Part shown: positions 31,636 through 46,101 of the stretch, in pieces
Position numbering within the stretch: position 1 is the stretch's first letter
Layout: each line of letters begins with the position of its first letter
Sequence record: PQ850608.1
From: Escherichia phage HermannAdler_Bas98
Strand: one strand, 5' to 3'
Length of the DNA: 64,000 nucleotides
Notes under the pieces: generated by a model
Told to the model about the DNA's origin: nothing
The model's database searches: none
Seen by the model: the letters and a program-made list of their open reading frames with translations, nothing else
Position numbers and translations under genes: made by a program

Positions 31636-32496
31636 TTAAAACTCTTCTGCGTCGGTCGGAGTTTCATTGACAGGACCAGCGGCACCGCTTGCTTCTTCCT
31701 GCTTGCTGCGGTCGATGTTGACGTTGCCGCCCACTACGTCATTGTGGAATGCCTTGGCGACTTCGTACAGACCTTTGTCCTGCACCAGACCTTCCAACTC
31801 AAACTTCAGAACGGACCAGGTGTTGCCGTCTTTGGACTGAGATGCAGTGCCCATGCGAACAATGTTCATAAAGGTCGGCGGCGTTTTCAGGCCCTGCGGA
31901 GTCTGAACTTTCTTCTGCTGCAGAGCGGTCATCAGCATGCGAGACGGCTTGATCATGGAAGAAGTCAGGGACAGCATTGCGCTACCAAATTCACCCGTTT
32001 CTTCGTTCAACAGAATCACGAAGTGGTTACGTGTATCTGCATAGTAAGGAGATTTCTTCTCGTGCACTTTGCCGTTTTCGTCCGGCACAAATACCTTACC
32101 GTTGATCTCAACAGCGCGGCCTGCCGCGACTTCTGCATCAACGTGCTCTTTGGTGAATTCACCTTTAAAGCCTTTATCGTCGGACTCGCGACCGCCCCAA
32201 AGGATGAAGGTGCGTTTGAATGCGCAAGGGATGATCTGCACGCCTTTCTTGCCGTCATACAACTCACCAGTGACGGTGTTGTACAGCATGCCAGCTTTTG
32301 CGCCAGGAACGTGTTTAGGATCATCTTCGTCGACCATAGGTGACATCTTCTGCAGGACGACGATAAAAGGAATGGCATACGCATCGGCATCGGCACCTTC
32401 AAAACCAGCGCCAAAATCGGTCATGTCGACAAAATCAGCCATAGCGGACATCTGGGTGTTTTTCACTGCAACTTCGGTGGTTTCTTTCTTAGACAT
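31636..32496 (-). CDS. Single-stranded DNA-binding / annealing protein (putative)
   Basis: 286 aa with acidic C-terminal tail ending ...TDAEEF, as in SSB-type proteins; located in replication block. Confidence 0.45.
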   Translation of the reverse strand: MSKKETTEVAVKNTQMSAMADFVDMTDFGAGFEGADADAYAIPFIVVLQKMSPMVDEDDPKHVPGAKAGMLYNTVTGELYDGKKGVQIIPCAFKRTFILWGGRESDDKGFKGEFTKEHVDAEVAAGRAVEINGKVFVPDENGKVHEKKSPYYADTRNHFVILLNEETGEFGSAMLSLTSSMIKPSRMLMTALQQKKVQTPQGLKTPPTFMNIVRMGTASQSKDGNTWSVLKFELEGLVQDKGLYEVAKAFHNDVVGGNVNIDRSKQEEASGAAGPVNETPTDAEEF

Positions 32497-38870: not shown

Positions 38871-39422
38871 TTATACAGTGTACGGAGTACCTTCTTGATT
38901 CAAGCGCACGATAAACTTCAAATCAACGCCGATGATTTCACGCGTATCAAAGATCACATAGTTGTAACGACGTTGGCCAGCGATGTTTGGGTTGGTGTGA
39001 GAATCAGTTACGACTTCCTGTGCAACCTGAATGCCTTCTTCGCTAAAGAACTTACGCCATTCAGCAAGTTCAGCAGCAGTCACGTGCATACCAAGGTGGC
39101 TGACCTGATTATCGTGCGCATCGAGCATGTCGATGTTTTCATTAATCCAGTTGCAACCTTTTGTGTAGTCAAGGATTTCAAGCTCAAGAGGCTTACCAGC
39201 GCCGCCATCAGTACCGTTGCCAGCCTGATAGTTGAAGCGCAAGTCAGCTTCATTGGTGCAATCGCCGCGCTGACCTTTAAAGTCATCAGCTTCAAATACG
39301 CGACCAGTAGCAACAACGTGATCATGGAACCACTCTGTCAGGCCGATTTTAGCCAGGAAGTCCTGAGCGCGTTGAGCATCTGGAATGGACAGGGCGATTT
39401 GTTCAATTTTAAAATGTGGCAT
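38871..39422 (-). CDS. Hypothetical protein, VOC/glyoxalase-like fold suspected
   Basis: 183 aa; N-terminal MPHFKIEQIALSIPD...FLAKIGL pattern reminiscent of VOC enzymes; weak. Confidence 0.4.
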   Translation of the reverse strand: MPHFKIEQIALSIPDAQRAQDFLAKIGLTEWFHDHVVATGRVFEADDFKGQRGDCTNEADLRFNYQAGNGTDGGAGKPLELEILDYTKGCNWINENIDMLDAHDNQVSHLGMHVTAAELAEWRKFFSEEGIQVAQEVVTDSHTNPNIAGQRRYNYVIFDTREIIGVDLKFIVRLNQEGTPYTV

Positions 39423-39442
39423 TTTGTTTCCTTAATTAAATA

Positions 39443-39658
39443 TTATTGATTAATTACTGTGTTGTCTTCGTCCTGTTTCTTTTCAGGAGCGGGTGTGACA
39501 ACTTCAAATTTAGGTTTGGGTAATTCACCTTTAGCGCCTGGGACTTCAACGACAATCTTTTTGTCAGGCTCAACAGGATTTGGAACTTCAAATTTGATTG
39601 TGTATCCTAATACAACAAGAAGCACTAAACCGATTACCGCTACCCAGGCTTTGTTCAT
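39443..39658 (-). CDS. Small membrane-anchored Pro/Lys/Glu-rich protein
   Basis: N-terminal TM (AWVAVIGLVLLVVLGY) followed by Pro-rich extended segment; 71 aa. Confidence 0.45.
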   Translation of the reverse strand: MNKAWVAVIGLVLLVVLGYTIKFEVPNPVEPDKKIVVEVPGAKGELPKPKFEVVTPAPEKKQDEDNTVINQ

Positions 39659-39660
39659 GG

Positions 39661-39828
39661 TTATTCGCCCTTATCTTTGCCTTCTATGGAATAAGTCTCA
39701 ATGGAACCGACGCGCTCGTGGTTAACCTTTGCGTTTTCGATTCTTATTACTTCAAATCCAACGCCTTCTTGATCAATCTTCACTTCTGCCACGTCGCCAA
39801 TCACTTCTACAACAACTTTGATAGTCAT
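39661..39828 (-). CDS. Small hypothetical protein (about 55 aa, below track length cutoff)
   Basis: Read by eye as MTIKVVVEVIGDVAEVKIDQEGVGFEV...; fills gap between flanking genes; coordinates approximate within 1-2 nt. Confidence 0.3.
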   Translation of the reverse strand: MTIKVVVEVIGDVAEVKIDQEGVGFEVIRIENAKVNHERVGSIETYSIEGKDKGE

Positions 39829-39831
39829 GAT

Positions 39832-40515
39832 TTATTTCCCAAATGGAATATCAGTACCAGACATAAAGCGCCATGCGCCCGTAATTAAGATATGGCGAAT
39901 GAAGTCAGCAATTACTTGCGGCTCAGTCTCCAATCCATTCATCAATGCCTTTTTCTGGTATTCAGCGGCGTATTCAGGAGTCCATCCGCGAGTCGCGCAA
40001 ACAGCATCTTCAATCTGTTTAGACATACCAGTGCCGCGCAACTTGTTAGGACTAATAGAGAATACCGTGATGCCGTATTTAGGCGTAAGCTCGTGAGCCA
40101 TCTGCTTGCTAATCATAAGCGCAGCAGCCTTGGATGCATTATAACACAAGCTGGACGTCATAGGAATATGCGCAGCGTTAGAAACGATATTGATCACAAA
40201 ACCTTTGTTGTCGATAAGACTTTTCAGCGCGGCCTGAGTCGTGTTGACGAAAGAGAAGGCGTTGGTGTGCATAACGCGATTGAACTCTTCGTAGTTAACA
40301 TCTTCGAACCAGTTGTTGGAGTTGACGCCAGCGCAGTTGATCAAGCCTTCTACATCATATGGGCTTAAAATTTCTTTCATCTGTTTAGCGTCGCGGACGT
40401 CATATCCGTATGCTGAATCGATTCCAAGCACGTTATGACCGTAAGCGCCAAGGGTGTCAAAAATAGATTTACCAAGACCGGAATTGGAACCTGTTACAAC
40501 AATTACTTTTTTCAT
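39832..40515 (-). CDS. Short-chain dehydrogenase/reductase (SDR) family oxidoreductase
   Basis: Rossmann motif TGSNSGLG near N-terminus and catalytic YNASK (YxxxK); 227 aa. Confidence 0.8.
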   Translation of the reverse strand: MKKVIVVTGSNSGLGKSIFDTLGAYGHNVLGIDSAYGYDVRDAKQMKEILSPYDVEGLINCAGVNSNNWFEDVNYEEFNRVMHTNAFSFVNTTQAALKSLIDNKGFVINIVSNAAHIPMTSSLCYNASKAAALMISKQMAHELTPKYGITVFSISPNKLRGTGMSKQIEDAVCATRGWTPEYAAEYQKKALMNGLETEPQVIADFIRHILITGAWRFMSGTDIPFGK

Positions 40516-40536
40516 TTATTTATCCTTTTTGGACTT

Positions 40537-40570
40537 CGTTTCGATGAGGTAAATATAACTCATCGAAACG
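40537..40570 (-). promoter_or_regulatory. Conserved inverted-repeat element upstream of RBS (copy 2)
   Basis: Perfect 12-bp inverted repeat CGTTTCGATGAG...CTCATCGAAACG with 10-nt loop; just 5' of SDR gene RBS on the minus strand. Confidence 0.5.
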
Positions 40571-40580
40571 CACAAGTAAA

Positions 40581-41456
40581 CTATTTATTGAAATTAATAT
40601 TATGGGTGTTAACAAGACGTTCACACATGGCGCTATAAACACCATCGTCGTGTATTGAGTCTTCGTGCTTCAGGCCGCTGATTGCGAAGCGTGTAAGCTT
40701 GACAATCTTAAGCTCGAACAGATGCCACATGTGGTAGTCTTCCGGTGTCTTCAAAGTTACGCCATTAGGGAACAACACCTGCATAACCTGACCTACCATC
40801 ACAGCGTTATCGCCATAAACGGCATTGCGCTCACGGAAGGTCGCGGCCATCGCATCAAGAATATCAGCAGCGGTTGCTGGGGCTTGTTGTTCAACTTCAA
40901 CAAGTTTAGTCTCTTCTTTCCCTGTTGCACTTGGATCAACTGCTAATTGTTGCACCACTTCACCTGCCTTGCAAAGATTAAATGTAAAGGCGATTTTATT
41001 TTGCGCCATGGAATTATAGTGCAAAGCTTCTTCTTGCATCCGCGCGAGTACGTCTTGTCGGTCGTCGAATACATTGATGATTCGATAATCGCCGTGCCGC
41101 AAAGCGTGCGATAGCCATGCAGATTTCATAATAGTTGATGGACGTTTGTCGCCATAGTCTCTCATCTTGATTGTAAATTCATCAAAAGGGAAAACATTGT
41201 CCAGACGTTCAAAAGTCACTTGTCTGTATTTTTCTGGCCTTGCAGTCCAATATTCAACCGCCTCACCGCGAAGAGATGCCGACTCTACTGCTGATGCAAT
41301 GTGAGGATAGAACTGATCATAACCAATACCGCTGTGATAGTCATCATAGTCTGACAACGGACCTGCCACCTTGATGCGGTCTAAGCGCCAACGGTCATCA
41401 AACAGCGTTCCGTCAAGGTCGAATACGTTTAAGATTTCGCTGTTTTTAATGCTCAT
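40581..41456 (-). CDS. HAD-superfamily phosphatase with C-terminal extension
   Basis: N-terminal motif I FDLDGTLFD (DxDGT); 291 aa, C-terminal half unassigned. Confidence 0.6.
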   Translation of the reverse strand: MSIKNSEILNVFDLDGTLFDDRWRLDRIKVAGPLSDYDDYHSGIGYDQFYPHIASAVESASLRGEAVEYWTARPEKYRQVTFERLDNVFPFDEFTIKMRDYGDKRPSTIMKSAWLSHALRHGDYRIINVFDDRQDVLARMQEEALHYNSMAQNKIAFTFNLCKAGEVVQQLAVDPSATGKEETKLVEVEQQAPATAADILDAMAATFRERNAVYGDNAVMVGQVMQVLFPNGVTLKTPEDYHMWHLFELKIVKLTRFAISGLKHEDSIHDDGVYSAMCERLVNTHNINFNK

Positions 41457-42262
41457 CCTTTTGATACTCCATCTTTAGCAACTGGATTGTTGGTGATTGG
41501 CATTGCACTCCAAAACTGGATGCGCAACTCTTCTTGCTGTGCCGTGGTATCCATCCAATCACGATACCAAGGGCAATGGGCTTTGCCATGACGAGGAAAC
41601 GCGCATTTACCCATACCGATGCATTGCGGCTGTAATAGTGGATTTGCCCACGGGTGCACCTTGAGGACTTCCGCAACCATTGCGCGGAATACTTCTTGAT
41701 ACTCGCCTTGGGTGCGCGTGCACAAGCGGTTTGACGCCATCTGCTGCAGCGTGCGCAAGTTGAACTTTGCCATGATATGCGTTTGCATATTAGAAGGCAA
41801 CACGGCACGTGCATCTTGAATCTCTGCGCCAGCCGCGCGAAGCTCTTGGTATAGAGCGTCAATCGTGGCCATCGCATCATCCCACTTCTCTGCCAATGAG
41901 TGATTTCTTATGTGCACATCATCAAATGCATTTTCATCATTGCAGTCAAAAGGGTGCTCGAATGCCTTCGGACGAATCGCATCAAATGCAGACGACTCCT
42001 GAGCGCGGCTGGTGCGTTCTTGATATGCGCCTGTGCGTGTGCGTACCATCTGATGGGTCATGTTCTTTGATACAGCTGTGATATCAAAGATATAGTCCAC
42101 AAAGTCAAAAGGAGACCTGATTGTATCAAGCATGTAGCGCCAGTGCTCTTGCTTCTCTGATTCTGTCATCTCAGAGACTGGCTTACCAGTCATGCGCGTG
42201 TTCTTTGTTTCCAGCAAAAGGTCAAGTGCATCTTGGGTGTATCGAATTAATTCAACTTTCAT
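41453..42262 (-). CDS. Divergent ThyX-like (flavin-dependent thymidylate synthase family) protein
   Basis: Aligns by eye to the ThyX core: QMVRTRTGAYQERTSR where ThyX has the RHR-x7-S motif, and RAVLPSNMQTH...R.L..M...R against the second ThyX block; Cys-rich C-terminal tail CIGMGKCAFPRHGKAHCPWY. Confidence 0.65.
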   Translation of the reverse strand: MKVELIRYTQDALDLLLETKNTRMTGKPVSEMTESEKQEHWRYMLDTIRSPFDFVDYIFDITAVSKNMTHQMVRTRTGAYQERTSRAQESSAFDAIRPKAFEHPFDCNDENAFDDVHIRNHSLAEKWDDAMATIDALYQELRAAGAEIQDARAVLPSNMQTHIMAKFNLRTLQQMASNRLCTRTQGEYQEVFRAMVAEVLKVHPWANPLLQPQCIGMGKCAFPRHGKAHCPWYRDWMDTTAQQEELRIQFWSAMPITNNPVAKDGVSKG

Positions 42263-42275
42263 TTTAATTATCCTA

Positions 42276-42722
42276 TTAACGGTAATTCACTAGTTGCTGA
42301 TCACCAGAGAAGGTGCAATGATAAACGAATTGTGCGTTATAAAGCAACTGAAAACTTTTCTTTGGTTCATTATTAGAACTCATTGATGTAAAGATTTCTG
42401 CACCAGAACGGTTTTCACCAATCAGGTTAATAAAGTCGCCAGTTGAACGAGGCTGAACGAAAGTGAAACGCTGCATCCACGGAGTCCGGTTGGCACCTTT
42501 TCCGGTGAATCCCTGAATCTGAATATTCAGACCTTCTTGCTCGTTCACACCGATGTAAGTGGTAATTGTTGCGCCAGTCGTCGCTGCAGTCTTGCCGTCC
42601 ATCGCTTCGCAATCGTAAACAGCGATTGAATCGGAAGTACGGACAGCGGCTTCAGTCGCTTCCATATACATGGTTCCGAGAATAGCAGTTGCGGCAAGCG
42701 CGATTCCAGTGATGCGTTTCAT
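42276..42722 (-). CDS. Secreted protein with signal peptide
   Basis: N-terminus MKRITGIALAATAILGTMYMEA; 148 aa. Confidence 0.5.
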   Translation of the reverse strand: MKRITGIALAATAILGTMYMEATEAAVRTSDSIAVYDCEAMDGKTAATTGATITTYIGVNEQEGLNIQIQGFTGKGANRTPWMQRFTFVQPRSTGDFINLIGENRSGAEIFTSMSSNNEPKKSFQLLYNAQFVYHCTFSGDQQLVNYR

Positions 42723-42787
42723 TTTCGTTTCCTCTATGAGTTCTGCTTCAATGATTAAAGTATACGCCCATTGAAGCAGAAAGCAAA

Positions 42788-43783
42788 TTATTTATTAGCA
42801 ATATAAGCAAATTTTTGATAGTTATTTGCTTTGATGAGTTTTTCAACTTCAGCAAGGTCATGAGCGACGTCATCAAGCAAAATGTTTCGCCAAGTAGCGA
42901 ATCGACCGACACTAAATACGTTCAAATCCATGGTCAGTTGCAGGAGTAGAGCGTGTCGCAAGTCTTTCGGAATGTCGACAATCTTGCCATACTTCTGGTC
43001 GACCTTTTCAACTTCTTCGAGAGCGATGTCACTCCATGATAGGCCAAAGGCTGTCAATACTTCGTCAACTTCTGCACGCAACTTAATGTCACGGTAACGA
43101 GTAATGCCGCCAGCGGCTTCAACTGCGGCTTCACTTACGCTAACCAAAGGAATTGTTTCGATGATCAGCGTGTCACCAGTGATTGATGCGCGGTAAGTTC
43201 TGACGGAGTAGTCAGGGAAGTAAATTGTCTGATACAACTCACACTTACGTTTAATCTTAAAGCGGTAAACACGAATGTTTGCTTTATCAAATGAAAAATC
43301 AAGCTTTTGATCAATCCCAGCCAGCTTCATCATAACTGGCAGCGGCGACGTGTTGATGATTGGCGTCTCGCTATAGCCGCAAAGAGTATCAACAGGAGTA
43401 TTAAAGAATATGCGGTCGCCCAGTTTGTCGACAAGCTGATCATAAAAGTCATCAGGCGCAATATAACGCGTTGCAGTTTTAAGCTTCATGATTGAACGGC
43501 TGCCAAACTGATTGGTGACCTTCATGGAATACATATTGGCAAGGTTGATTGGACAATGGTCGTGGTAGTAGTTGCCGCGAAAATACACAGCCTTGTCAAC
43601 TGTCACGGCCTTAAAAGGGATTCCGGTAATACGGCTTACTTCTTCGCCGCGAAAGCGTAGCAGTGCCTTGTGCTGTGGCGCTCGCTCCCCTGCTTCGTAC
43701 ACAATAGAGTTCGGGAAGTGACACGCGGTGATAAGTCCTGCCAAACCGCCGCCGATAATCATTACAGGTTGTTTCATGTTCAT
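42788..43783 (-). CDS. FAD/NAD(P)-binding oxidoreductase
   Basis: Dinucleotide-binding GxGxxG at N-terminus (MIIGGGLAGL) followed by acidic residue pattern; 331 aa. Confidence 0.6.
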   Translation of the reverse strand: MNMKQPVMIIGGGLAGLITACHFPNSIVYEAGERAPQHKALLRFRGEEVSRITGIPFKAVTVDKAVYFRGNYYHDHCPINLANMYSMKVTNQFGSRSIMKLKTATRYIAPDDFYDQLVDKLGDRIFFNTPVDTLCGYSETPIINTSPLPVMMKLAGIDQKLDFSFDKANIRVYRFKIKRKCELYQTIYFPDYSVRTYRASITGDTLIIETIPLVSVSEAAVEAAGGITRYRDIKLRAEVDEVLTAFGLSWSDIALEEVEKVDQKYGKIVDIPKDLRHALLLQLTMDLNVFSVGRFATWRNILLDDVAHDLAEVEKLIKANNYQKFAYIANK

Positions 43784-43863
43784 TTGTCCTTTGTGGGTGA
43801 TATGAGAAGTATAATAGCTAAATTATTTTACAGCAACAAGTCATTTCTATTTAGTACAGACGA

Positions 43864-43890
43864 AAAAAGACCCACAACAAGTGTGGGTCA
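43864..43890 (-). terminator. Rho-independent terminator (minus strand)
   Basis: GACCCACAACAAGTGTGGGTC hairpin, T-run on minus strand (AAAAAA on plus). Confidence 0.6.
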
Positions 43891-43917: not shown

Positions 43918-44763
43918 TTATTCCGCTTGATCACCGTCTTCGGCATCGTCGTTGGATTCAACATCGACAAACTCGATGTGGCCCATCTCTTCCAGCTTGC
44001 TCAGGTAGGAGCGAACGGAAGCGCCAAACAGCTGATCTTTAACTTTCTCGCCCAGCTCATCGATAGACTGCGCCACGCCAACTTCGCCTTCTTTGATCGC
44101 CGCCAGAACGCGCCCACGGGTGGAGTGCTCCTGCGGCTGGCTCAGGCCGTTGCCAGTGTAGATGAAGTGAGTAGCTTTTGCACGGCGCTGACCGTTTGCC
44201 TTTTTGGCAGCCTTGCGCTCTGCGATGGCTTTGCGACGTTCTTCAGCTTCTTTCTTACGCTGTTCTTTTTGCTGTTCTGCAGCTTCTTTCGCCGCGATCT
44301 TAGCAGCTTCACGCTCTGCCTTGCGTTTCGCTTTCGCTTCTTCTTTAGCCTTCTCTTTTTCGGCCTTTGCTGCAGCACGGGCTTGATCACGCTCTGCTTT
44401 CTTAGCAGCAGCTTGTTCAGCTTTCAGGCGCTTGGCTTCTTCTTTGGCCTTTGCCTTTTCGATTTCTTTTGCTGCTTTAGCGGCTTCACGCTCTGCTTTC
44501 TTAGCAGCAGCCTTTTCTGCACGCTCTTTAGCTTTCTTAGCTGCTTCTTCAGCACGCTTCTGAGCCTTCTCATCAGCAGCCTGTTTGCGCTTCAGCGCGG
44601 CTTCTTCACGCTTGGCTTGTTTTTCCTGCTCACGCTTCTGGCGTTTTTCTTCGGCTTCTTTCTTTTTAGCCAGGCGTTTTTCTTCAGCCACGCGACGACG
44701 TTCTGCTGCGGCTGCTTGTTTTTCTTCTTTAGATAATACTTTGATTGCTTCGGCCATATTCAC
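43918..44763 (-). CDS. Lys/Glu/Ala-rich repeat protein with globular C-terminal domain
   Basis: About 200 aa of KEA-rich low-complexity helix-like repeats (AEEKRLAKKKEAEEKRQK...), then an ordered domain with acidic tail; underlying DNA has tandem repeats. Confidence 0.55.
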   Translation of the reverse strand: MNMAEAIKVLSKEEKQAAAAERRRVAEEKRLAKKKEAEEKRQKREQEKQAKREEAALKRKQAADEKAQKRAEEAAKKAKERAEKAAAKKAEREAAKAAKEIEKAKAKEEAKRLKAEQAAAKKAERDQARAAAKAEKEKAKEEAKAKRKAEREAAKIAAKEAAEQQKEQRKKEAEERRKAIAERKAAKKANGQRRAKATHFIYTGNGLSQPQEHSTRGRVLAAIKEGEVGVAQSIDELGEKVKDQLFGASVRSYLSKLEEMGHIEFVDVESNDDAEDGDQAE

Positions 44764-44916
44764 AGTCCTTAAATAAATTAGTTTATTTTATATTCCCCGT
44801 TTGGGATAACTTAATTATGCCTTCAGTCGCCGCCAGTAGCAACTAAAAACTATGGCGGCAATGCCACTTTAATTAAACTGATTTTCAGTTTTATTTTTCG
44901 TAAATTTACGTCAACA

Positions 44917-46101
44917 TTAACGCGCTTTCAAATCACGGTACACGGTCAGATTCTTCTTAGCACGGGTGATAGCGGTGTACATCATCTTGGAGTACGGAAC
45001 GCCGCGCAGGATTTCTTCCAGCACGCACACATTGTCCCACTCGCTGCCTTGCGATTTGTGCACCGTGATGACATAGCCATAGTCCATGCCTCCAACAGCG
45101 CGTTGCGCTTCTTTGCGCACTTCCTGATCAGTAGAGAAGGAAAGAGGATTGATCTTCACCTTTATATCTTTACCATCAGTTAATGAACGTAAGTTGACAT
45201 ACATTATTTCATTCGACTCATCTTCATCCCTTTCGAAGTCCGGCACTGGCTCATAGCTAATAACAATCCCTTGCTCGCCATTACAGAATCCTGGCCCGTG
45301 TTGGTTGAAGGTGCAAATAACCTTCTCACCGATTCCTGGCATTGGCGTTATACGTCCGCTCACTTGCCGTAATAATGAATTCCATTTATCTTTTGTGCTA
45401 TTATAGGAGCAAATAATTTGATCATCTTCGCCCATGAATTTCTTCAATGCAGTAACGCGCGGCGATTCTGCCAATACTTTGACGTCATCGTATTCACGCG
45501 GAGGAAGGCGGTTGCCTTGGCGCACGAAGAAGGAGGCGCGGATTATATTGGACTCTTTCCCTTGCCGCATGATTTCTGTTAACAGTACGTCAACGGCATC
45601 TTCAGTAAAGTAGGCGGCGGCTTTTACCGGAGGGACTTGTCCAATGTCGCCTAATGCCAGGACAGGGATGCGGTGATCAAGAAGGCGCTCTGTGTCCCAC
45701 TCGCCAACCATCGACGCTTCATCGAGTACAACAAGATGCGGCCTTTCATCCAGCTTTGACTTTCTCGAAAAGATTGGCTCATTGTCGTCATTTACGCCGC
45801 GCACGTTATAGATGAACTGGTGAAGGGTCTTAGCGCCACGACAGCCTTTTTGCTTTAATCGGCTTGCAGCCTTTCCGGTCGGCGCAATATAGATAGCTCC
45901 ATACTCACCGACACAACGGCGCACAATCTCGCGAGCAATAGAGGTTTTACCAGTCCCTGCATAGCCAGCAATGAAAAACACGCGCTTCGTCGTTTTACCG
46001 TCCTGCAATCGCTTGTACCATGCAACGGCTTTCTCGATGGCGTCGATTTGTTGCGCGTTAAACTGAATCACTGGCTCATCATTAAATTCTGGAATGTTCA
46101 T
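44917..46101 (-). CDS. RecD/Dda-like superfamily 1 DNA helicase
   Basis: Walker A GYAGTGKTS, Walker B VVLDEASMV, C-terminal TVHKSQGSEWD motif. Confidence 0.8.
   Translation of the reverse strand: MNIPEFNDEPVIQFNAQQIDAIEKAVAWYKRLQDGKTTKRVFFIAGYAGTGKTSIAREIVRRCVGEYGAIYIAPTGKAASRLKQKGCRGAKTLHQFIYNVRGVNDDNEPIFSRKSKLDERPHLVVLDEASMVGEWDTERLLDHRIPVLALGDIGQVPPVKAAAYFTEDAVDVLLTEIMRQGKESNIIRASFFVRQGNRLPPREYDDVKVLAESPRVTALKKFMGEDDQIICSYNSTKDKWNSLLRQVSGRITPMPGIGEKVICTFNQHGPGFCNGEQGIVISYEPVPDFERDEDESNEIMYVNLRSLTDGKDIKVKINPLSFSTDQEVRKEAQRAVGGMDYGYVITVHKSQGSEWDNVCVLEEILRGVPYSKMMYTAITRAKKNLTVYRDLKAR

Follow-up and report, generated by a model that had tools for sequence, protein, structure and literature searches.

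A helicase-linked protein of PB1-like phages combines a predicted two-striped hendecad helix with a winged-helix-like domain

Charged single alpha-helix (CSAH, or ER/K) domains occur, for example, in myosin VI/X and caldesmon, and canonical CSAHs alternate acidic and basic blocks with a period of ~7-8 residues, opposite charges wrapping round the helix. Linker histones H1/H5 carry a winged-helix globular domain and a Lys/Ala-rich tail, and bacterial H1-like proteins are also known. Plasmid KfrA-type proteins join a winged-helix DNA-binding domain to a long alpha-helical tail, described as a heptad coiled coil. Escherichia coli TolA has an Ala/Lys/Glu-rich domain II of long helical character, and tolA is a documented length-variable tandem-repeat locus (PMC3477136). 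In this study, we compared with these systems a 279-residue protein encoded on the minus strand, at 43918-44757, of a 64,000-nucleotide stretch of Escherichia phage HermannAdler_Bas98 (PQ850608.1; hereafter the window, to which all positions refer). The protein belongs to a catalogued phage family, and the joining of a bipolar hendecad helix to a winged-helix domain that we predict for it has, to our knowledge, not been described previously. We tentatively propose an architectural role for it at the phage DNA or replisome.

Residues 1-190, whose net charge is +25, consist of 30% Ala, 24% Lys, 21% Glu and 11% Arg and include only 11 bulky hydrophobic residues, which are never clustered. By composition, ~186 residues are K/E/A/R-rich, in agreement with the initial annotation of this DNA, which had described a Lys/Glu/Ala-rich region followed by a compact C-terminal domain with an acidic tail. 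The full-length AlphaFold2 (AF2) model, built from a 21-sequence alignment, had a mean pLDDT (predicted local distance difference test) of 87.8 and contained one unbroken helix over residues 7-186, ~27 nm long at 1.5 A per residue. The AF2 model of residues 170-279 (32-sequence alignment) had a pLDDT of 89.6 and the topology helix-b1-H1-b2-H2-H3-b3; the compact domain, residues ~197-264, was modelled at pLDDT ~95. The acidic tail was also recovered, its last 17 residues (FVDVESNDDAEDGDQAE) having a net charge of -8. The parts of the gene are:

43918-44757, minus strand: complete coding sequence (CDS), 279 aa plus the stop codon at 43918-43920, with an ATG start at 44757
44200-44739, minus strand: K/E/A/R-rich predicted helix, codons 7-186 (AF2, mostly pLDDT >90)
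44170-44199, minus strand: basic arm, codons 187-196 (ANGQRRAKAT), where G-x-R-R-x-K-A-T-H links the helix to the domain
43966-44169, minus strand: winged-helix-like domain, codons 197-264 (b1-H1-b2-H2-H3-b3)
43921-43965, minus strand: acidic low-confidence tail, codons 265-279 (DVESNDDAEDGDQAE; composition, pLDDT ~52)

The predicted domain is a three-helix bundle (H1, H2 and H3) on a small antiparallel beta-sheet, the arrangement that defines a winged helix. In the models it is thus winged-helix-like, and this fold alone would leave DNA, RNA or protein as its ligand. It is without a close solved relative: PDB sequence searches with the C-terminal domain (phmmer and profile) found nothing significant, and a BFVD fold search returned family members only. 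The family signature LYGxSVRSYLSKLEEMGH is located in H3. Residues Q209, S212, R214, G227, R249, K254 and L255 of the domain are invariant; in the family alignments R192 of the arm is also invariant, R191 nearly so, and R167 and R181, which lie in the helix before the arm, are nearly invariant.

Fourier analysis placed the K/R period of the window protein at 3.68 residues (11/3, a hendecad), with z = 9.7 against shuffles. A K/R peak at 3.64-3.72 was found in 20/21 family members analysed; of the 21, 18 reached z of 4-18, with periods of 3.67-3.70, and three stayed below 2.5, and this periodicity is kept though the family sequences are barely alignable in the helix. When the sequence was written in hendecad rows, K/R occupied positions 2, 3, 6 and 10, and D/E positions 0, 1, 5 and 8. 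The mean angles were 242 degrees for K/R versus 64 degrees for D/E, which places them on opposite faces, and the phase was stable over 180 residues. Ala was spread evenly round the helix (resultant R = 0.01), and the 180-residue helix segment held 9 bulky hydrophobics. Neither apolar residues nor Ala showed significant periodicity at 3.5 or 3.67 residues (z 1.4-1.6); therefore, the helix lacks the hydrophobic seam that a canonical coiled coil would need. A canonical coiled coil or Alacoil was rejected as the default on this ground, and the helix may self-associate as a charge zipper. As modelled, the helix is a two-faced rod with one continuous basic stripe and one opposite acidic stripe. Unbroken over ~27 nm and without a seam, it fits the "long helical spacer" that had been suggested earlier. 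Such a helix is an unusual feature: its basic stripe lies opposite its acidic one, and the 11/3 register of the two is kept despite sequence turnover.

The protein resembles CSAH domains in its very long predicted helix, which is ~57% charged, Ala-rich and free of a hydrophobic seam. K-to-E pairs at i+4 numbered 23 versus 14.1 expected, and E-to-K pairs at i+3 were enriched over shuffles; E-to-K pairs at i+4 showed no enrichment. Unlike in canonical CSAHs, like charges are aligned into two stripes with an 11/3 period, and Ala makes up 30% of the segment. With H1/H5 the protein shares a winged-helix-type domain, a long Lys/Ala-rich segment and its likely abundance, whereas its tail, found at the N-terminus, has 41 acidic residues and is modelled as a rigid helix; moreover, the net charge of the phage family is near zero (-8 to +25) and there is no Pfam Linker_histone match. 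Yeast H1 GII appeared among the Foldseek matches, which were non-significant. KfrA also pairs a small DNA-binding-type domain with a very long charged/Ala-rich helix on a mobile replicon, near replication/partition genes, but the domain order is inverted in the phage protein, which has no KfrA_N Pfam match and no hydrophobic periodicity. The 11-mers of group 3 late embryogenesis abundant (LEA) proteins and apolipoproteins differ in that the 11/3 periodicity here is in charges and not in apolar residues, and no LEA_4 Pfam match was found. The winged-helix inserts of type-2 methionine aminopeptidase (MetAP2), Ebp1 and Arx1 matched at 4-19% identity with a non-significant Foldseek E of at least 0.4; these domains are inserted in an enzyme fold and contact the ribosome, whereas the phage protein has no enzyme fold.

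Several GenBank records of relatives carry the label "TolA protein". BLAST against E. coli TolA gave E 0.18 with composition correction and 1e-32 without it. Neither the transmembrane anchor nor the C-terminal domain III of TolA is present in the phage protein, whose N-terminus reads MAEAIKVLSKEEKQ. The 11/3 charge periodicity is missing from TolA domain II (power at 3.67 of 0.4 versus 4.0 in the phage protein), which has its own peak at ~5.3, reflecting its short tandem repeats. Tandem Repeats Finder (TRF) matched E. coli tolA even at a stricter setting and the phage gene not at all at default. The tolQRA-tolB-pal context is absent, the phage gene lying between a Dda-like helicase gene and a UDP-galactopyranose mutase (UGM)-like gene. 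Pfam returned 0 families at E<=1 and NCBIfam nothing meaningful. TolA homology was rejected on the basis of these searches, the composition-corrected BLAST and the periodicity comparison, and, judged from sequence, the "TolA" annotation is a compositional artefact.

The gene had initially been described as tandemly repetitive DNA, likely length-variable between isolates, and neither description survived. TRF with default settings returned 0 rows on the gene, and loosened settings gave weak arrays only, whose periods were 33, 24 and 45 nt and whose units matched at 49-69%. The 22-mer quoted as the repeat unit, GCTCTGCTTTCTTAGCAGCAGC (plus strand), has exactly two copies, at 44391 and 44490, 99 nt apart, where the chance expectation is 0. 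Both lie inside one degenerate duplication, the sole real DNA repeat:

44333-44520, minus strand: internal duplication, 89 nt, 74% identity, 99-nt spacing

This spacing equals 33 codons, or 3 hendecads. The duplicated segments, residues ~84-116 and 117-149, are ~58% identical as protein by manual count, and each DNA copy carries the 22-mer. The periodicity resides in the protein, as an 11-residue (33 nt) quasi-repeat, and not in the DNA.

We then compared the gene with its close relatives. The window region matched 28 records of Wifcevirus-type E. coli/Shigella myophages (~68 kb), including AV128, WFC, WFH, FEC19, ECML-117, Mansfield and Bas99-101, at 95-99.8% identity. The CDS alone gave a single ungapped 840-nt alignment in 28/28 of these records (94.3-99.9% identity), and the protein was 279 aa long in all six proteins compared codon by codon (window and five relatives). 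Relative to the window, the five relatives showed 16-23 synonymous versus 0-1 nonsynonymous codon differences in codons 1-190, and 7-17 versus 0-5 in the C-terminal part; ECML-117 and Bas101 encode exactly the same protein as the window. Length variation between isolates is contradicted by these results. A repeat region absent or frameshifted in close relatives, which would mark a non-functional ORF (open reading frame), was likewise not seen, all 28 orthologues being ungapped. The substitution pattern indicates that the K/E/A-rich region is under very strong purifying selection within the genus and that the ORF is functional. Helix length differs between genera and is constant within this genus. 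Of the marks of a contingency gene, high-identity head-to-tail DNA repeats were not found in the window gene, and copy-number differences were not found among the 28 records.

The protein matched phrog_4765 (PHROG 4765, function unknown) over its full length with E 2e-84. This family includes LBL3 ORF66, MTx gp078, the BcepF1 "TolA protein" and the "TolA protein" of ECML-117, FEC19 and vB_Eco4M-7; the window protein is a member by its architecture, its place after a Dda-like helicase and its terminator. The PHROG 4765 labels TolA, structural protein and cell-wall hydrolase are unsupported. A tblastn search with the last 95 residues found 356 phage records, of which 293 were Pseudomonas phages (mostly Pbunavirus/PB1-like) and the remainder Wifceviruses and phages of Serratia, Pantoea, Burkholderia, Xanthomonas and Aeromonas. 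When 1.84 billion representative proteins were searched exhaustively with a profile, only 33 clusters were returned, all of the same family, and among these representatives there was no annotated distant relative to lend a function; a word-indexed protein search with the C-terminal domain returned only 4 fragments. On these searches, the family appears restricted to PB1-like phages, in which its anatomy and its position after the Dda-like helicase are kept across at least seven host genera.

Every full-length member begins with a short variable N-terminus and a stretch of 110-190 residues in which K, E, A, R, Q and D abound, followed by the conserved G-x-R-R-x-K-A-T-H junction, a ~70-residue domain and usually an acidic tail. 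The tail of relatives is 0-40 aa long, variable in sequence and nearly always acidic. Many members have His-rich N-termini, such as MSHTHHHDA, MSHGHHNHG, MHKHHNHDHN, MNQHAHEKHEHHD and similar (homologues P0008, P0011, P0017, P0018, P0019, P0020 and P0030, and L004 2485-3375), which could be a metal-binding motif; they are absent from Wifcevirus and Pbunavirus proteins. In Pseudomonas therapy, few phages are used more than the PB1-like ones (Pbunavirus). The protein is conserved in all Pbunaviruses/Wifceviruses and appears to be among their most highly expressed, and it has been mislabelled or left hypothetical; our analysis corrects the annotation and delimits the conserved core to residues ~165-265.

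The ORF at 43918-44763 on the minus strand, present in the window ORF list, is real. Its start had initially been placed at GTG 44763, two codons upstream of ATG 44757. The ribosome-binding site (RBS) lies 8 nt from ATG 44757 and only 2 nt from GTG 44763, and the CDS is annotated as 840 nt in every annotated relative (Mansfield, ECML-117, WFH and Bas101); the true start is therefore ATG 44757, giving 279 aa. The signals flanking the gene are:

44814-44842, minus strand: sigma-70-like promoter match TTGCTA-17-CATAAT, a consensus match only, in the 153-nt gap after the helicase gene
44766-44770, minus strand: RBS AAGGA, 8 nt upstream of ATG 44757, with an equivalent RBS annotated in Mansfield
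43860-43889, minus strand: intrinsic terminator right after the stop codon, an 8-bp stem with 5 G-C pairs followed by TTTTTT

Annotated terminators occupy the equivalent position in Mansfield, WFH, LBL3, MTx and XcP1. Given the promoter-like site and the terminator, the gene looks like its own transcription unit. In the window, it directly follows the gene of a Dda-like superfamily 1 (SF1) helicase (44917-46101; Pfam AAA_30/UvrD_C_2), and this order recurs in all the relatives inspected (Mansfield, LBL3, MTx, Gekk3-15, XcP1, E215 and Pa193). The same linkage was found in a distant 68-kb metagenomic phage contig (L013), where the downstream genes differ.

By a crude preferred-codon index, the gene ranks 1/67 among window ORFs of at least 100 aa, at 0.80 versus a median of 0.48, which is above the ORF taken as the major capsid gene; its Arg codons are CGT/CGC in 25/25 cases. 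The codon bias, its own promoter-like site and the strong terminator suggest that the protein is probably abundant. Mass spectrometry (MS) of CsCl-purified vB_Eco4M-7 detected the "TolA protein" vB_Eco4M-7_83 with 7 peptides, 25.8% coverage and a score of 1197.6, and the same study detected ECML-117 gp81, which is identical to the window protein, with 2 peptides in CsCl-purified phage (PMC7048862). For a protein so dense in K/R, little more than this coverage of 25.8% can be expected after digestion with trypsin. The protein is thus expressed; its residence in the virion is not established by these data, since MS lists include non-structural proteins.

Taken together, the explanation we prefer, while giving it somewhat less than an even chance, is that this is an abundant, middle-expressed protein of the replication module that serves as a DNA- or replisome-associated architectural protein. 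In this proposal, the winged-helix domain, together with the Arg/Lys arm (R167, R181, R191, R192 and K194), R214, R249 and K254, would dock on a polyanion, most likely the phage DNA or, alternatively, an acidic surface of the neighbouring helicase or replisome. Nucleic-acid binding through H3 and the wing is hinted at by the invariant R249 and K254 in H3 and by the R191/R192/K194 arm, and in many winged-helix domains the ligand is a protein instead. The helix, a rigid bipolar rod of ~27 nm, would lie along neighbouring DNA or protein, or project from it, and in this way space or organise these components. The acidic tail, for its part, could bend back onto the docking surface, which is basic, or bring in a partner, as acidic tails do in proteins of the single-stranded DNA-binding (SSB) type. 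If the protein organises or protects phage DNA, it bears on fast replication and evasion of host defences; if it does not, the analysis still gives a useful negative, namely that the gene is neither a variable-repeat locus nor a TolA homologue.

Several results weigh against this proposal. Nucleic-acid binding is itself only our reading of the sequence and models. Foldseek of the predicted domain against the PDB gave no significant match, and its best structural neighbours, the MetAP2/Ebp1 insert, RPA32C and PBP2, are protein- or RNA-binding winged helices and not DNA binders. AlphaFold tends to render any K/E/A-rich stretch helical, and the monomeric single helix is a prediction only. The net charge of the helix is not conserved, being +25 here and -8 to +15 in relatives, and the core of the winged helix is close to neutral, with a net charge of -2 in the window protein and of -3 to +3 in relatives. 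No iteron-like repeats were found in the intergenic regions flanking the gene. Finally, MS detection in purified virions and the "structural protein" labels of several Pbunavirus records could mean a virion role.

The charge tally also bears on the mode of binding. The helix region contains 41 D/E versus 66 K/R, and the neutral core and variable helix charge make a simple polycation or histone-like mode unlikely for the family; that model is weakened accordingly, and with it the earlier suggestion of a compaction factor in the polycation sense. An origin-binding initiator was considered and is not supported, as no flanking iterons were found and expression signals this high would not suit such a protein. 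An anti-END inhibitor or DNA mimic, considered because of the acidic tail, was rejected because the inhibitor of Pbunavirus 14-1 is gp88, a different gene.

Two alternatives overlap our preferred explanation rather than exclude it. The first, which we regard as unlikely, is that the protein is a DNA-associated internal protein that binds the phage DNA at a late stage of infection, is packaged in the virion and is co-injected; it could protect or organise the incoming genome, for instance by shielding it from restriction. Its detection by MS in CsCl-purified particles of two Wifceviruses fits this, all the more as the vB_Eco4M-7 score of 1197.6 exceeds that of the portal protein (1112; PMC7048862), but the same lists hold glyoxalase-like protein, helicase, reductase and endolysin, and an abundant sticky protein could co-purify. 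Orthologues in LBL3, JG024, KPP12, PaGU11, XcP1 and tabernarius are labelled "putative structural protein". An internal DNA-associated protein would also agree with its absence from the MS list of Pbunavirus SCUT-S1 ghosts, made after LiCl release and DNase removal of DNA (PMC6521218); the SCUT-S1 orthologue (ORF69) was matched only by ORF-number offset against LBL3. The models built in the cryo-EM maps of E217 and Pa193 do not contain this protein, and internal asymmetric proteins would be invisible there. Against packaging, the gene lies in the replication/nucleotide-metabolism module and not in the head module. Furthermore, a 2025 preprint reports that thymidine in TG motifs of Pbunaviruses bears a sugar-type hypermodification for which the pathway genes are not known (PMC12191111), and this modification already offers an explanation for restriction resistance.

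The second overlapping alternative, to which we likewise assign a low probability, is a protein-protein adaptor for the Dda-like helicase or the replisome, with the winged helix binding a partner, as in RPA32C or archaeal PBP2, and the helix acting as a spacer or oligomerisation element. The helicase-then-gene order was invariant in at least eight genomes checked, including the distant contig with other neighbours, which speaks for such a partnership. In SSB-type proteins, recruitment at the replisome commonly works through an acidic C-terminal tail, and the tail seen here is in keeping with that. However, a helicase accessory factor would need far fewer copies than the codon bias and the MS signal suggest, and the presence of four invariant basic residues and no invariant acidic residue points to an anionic ligand. 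There is also no second conserved globular domain at the N-terminus for a spacer to connect.

A more far-reaching version, which we consider improbable, is a phage chromatin or "armour" protein. SPO1 TF1 provides a precedent for an abundant DNA-binding protein specialised for modified DNA. Here, the winged-helix head and the Arg ladder would anchor on the phage's own, likely hypermodified, DNA and the helix would coat the duplex, its basic stripe along the DNA and its acidic stripe outward, so that DNA would be coated without aggregation. The protein would be made in capsid-like amounts, part of it packaged and co-injected, and would contribute to the restriction-modification resistance of Wifceviruses, which grow very fast and show broad resistance of this kind without a known mechanism (PMC11990801). 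If true, a bipolar hendecad single helix serving as a linear DNA-coating element would be a new solution to nucleic-acid binding. Nothing here ties the protein directly to DNA modification, and in the distant contig the modification-type neighbours are absent while the helicase linkage is kept.

We judge a head-assembly scaffolding or chaperone protein to be very improbable. Phage scaffolding proteins such as P22 gp8 have a highly charged elongated helix and a small C-terminal binding domain, and the elongated K/E/A-rich helix with its small C-terminal domain, the high expression signals and the presence in particle preparations would all suit such a role. Nevertheless, the gene lies ~34 kb from the capsid genes, within the replication module, and is tightly linked to the helicase and not to protease, portal or capsid genes; in Pa193, a scaffold-like helical protein, gp24, is encoded beside the capsid gene and was seen inside the capsid. 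The remaining idea, a non-functional low-complexity ORF or a horizontally acquired TolA fragment with expanding and contracting repeats, can draw on the "TolA protein" labels and the uncorrected BLAST E of 1e-32, but it is hardly credible given the corrected E of 0.18, the lack of an anchor, of the TolA C-terminal domain and of any Pfam family, the absence of 11/3 charge periodicity from TolA domain II, the absence of indels in 28 genomes, a nonsynonymous rate (dN) far below the synonymous rate (dS) and the peptides observed by MS, and we conclude that the gene is neither a TolA homologue nor a contingency (variable-repeat) gene.

Opposite the gene, the plus strand contains an antisense ORF at 43927-44736 of 269 aa, rich in Phe/Leu/Ser/Cys. 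This ORF is an artefact, produced by the complement of the low-complexity codons, and it is the minus-strand frame with which the synonymous-only substitutions agree. Small AT-rich hairpins or palindromes lie at 44852-44895, in the stretch that separates the helicase stop codon from the promoter-like site, including a weak terminator-like stem (44867-44852) and an 11-nt inverted repeat (44871-44895); these might attenuate read-through from the helicase operon.

After the terminator, a cluster of nucleotide- or DNA-modification-like genes occupies 38871-43783 on the minus strand and encodes a UGM-like flavoprotein, a small signal-peptide-like protein, ThyX, a PNK/HAD phosphatase, a short-chain dehydrogenase and a glyoxalase-like protein. 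The cluster is a candidate modification pathway. The UGM-like ORF (42788-43783, 331 aa) has no Pfam match, and the Mansfield record cites HHpred similarity to UDP-galactopyranose mutase. Between it and ThyX, the ORF at 42276-42722 on the minus strand (148 aa) has a signal-peptide-like N-terminus (MKRITGIALAATAILGTMYMEATEAAV) and no Pfam match, which is odd inside a nucleotide-metabolism operon.

Two other minus-strand ORFs also had high preferred-codon values, the Pam3 gp34-like ORF (PF23977) at 31636-32496 and the glyoxalase-like ORF at 38871-39422, ranking 2 and 7/67, respectively. A glyoxalase family protein of matching size was detected with high scores in CsCl-purified vB_Eco4M-7 virions (PMC7048862). 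It may therefore be that these virions contain several abundant accessory proteins, or that such proteins co-purify with them.

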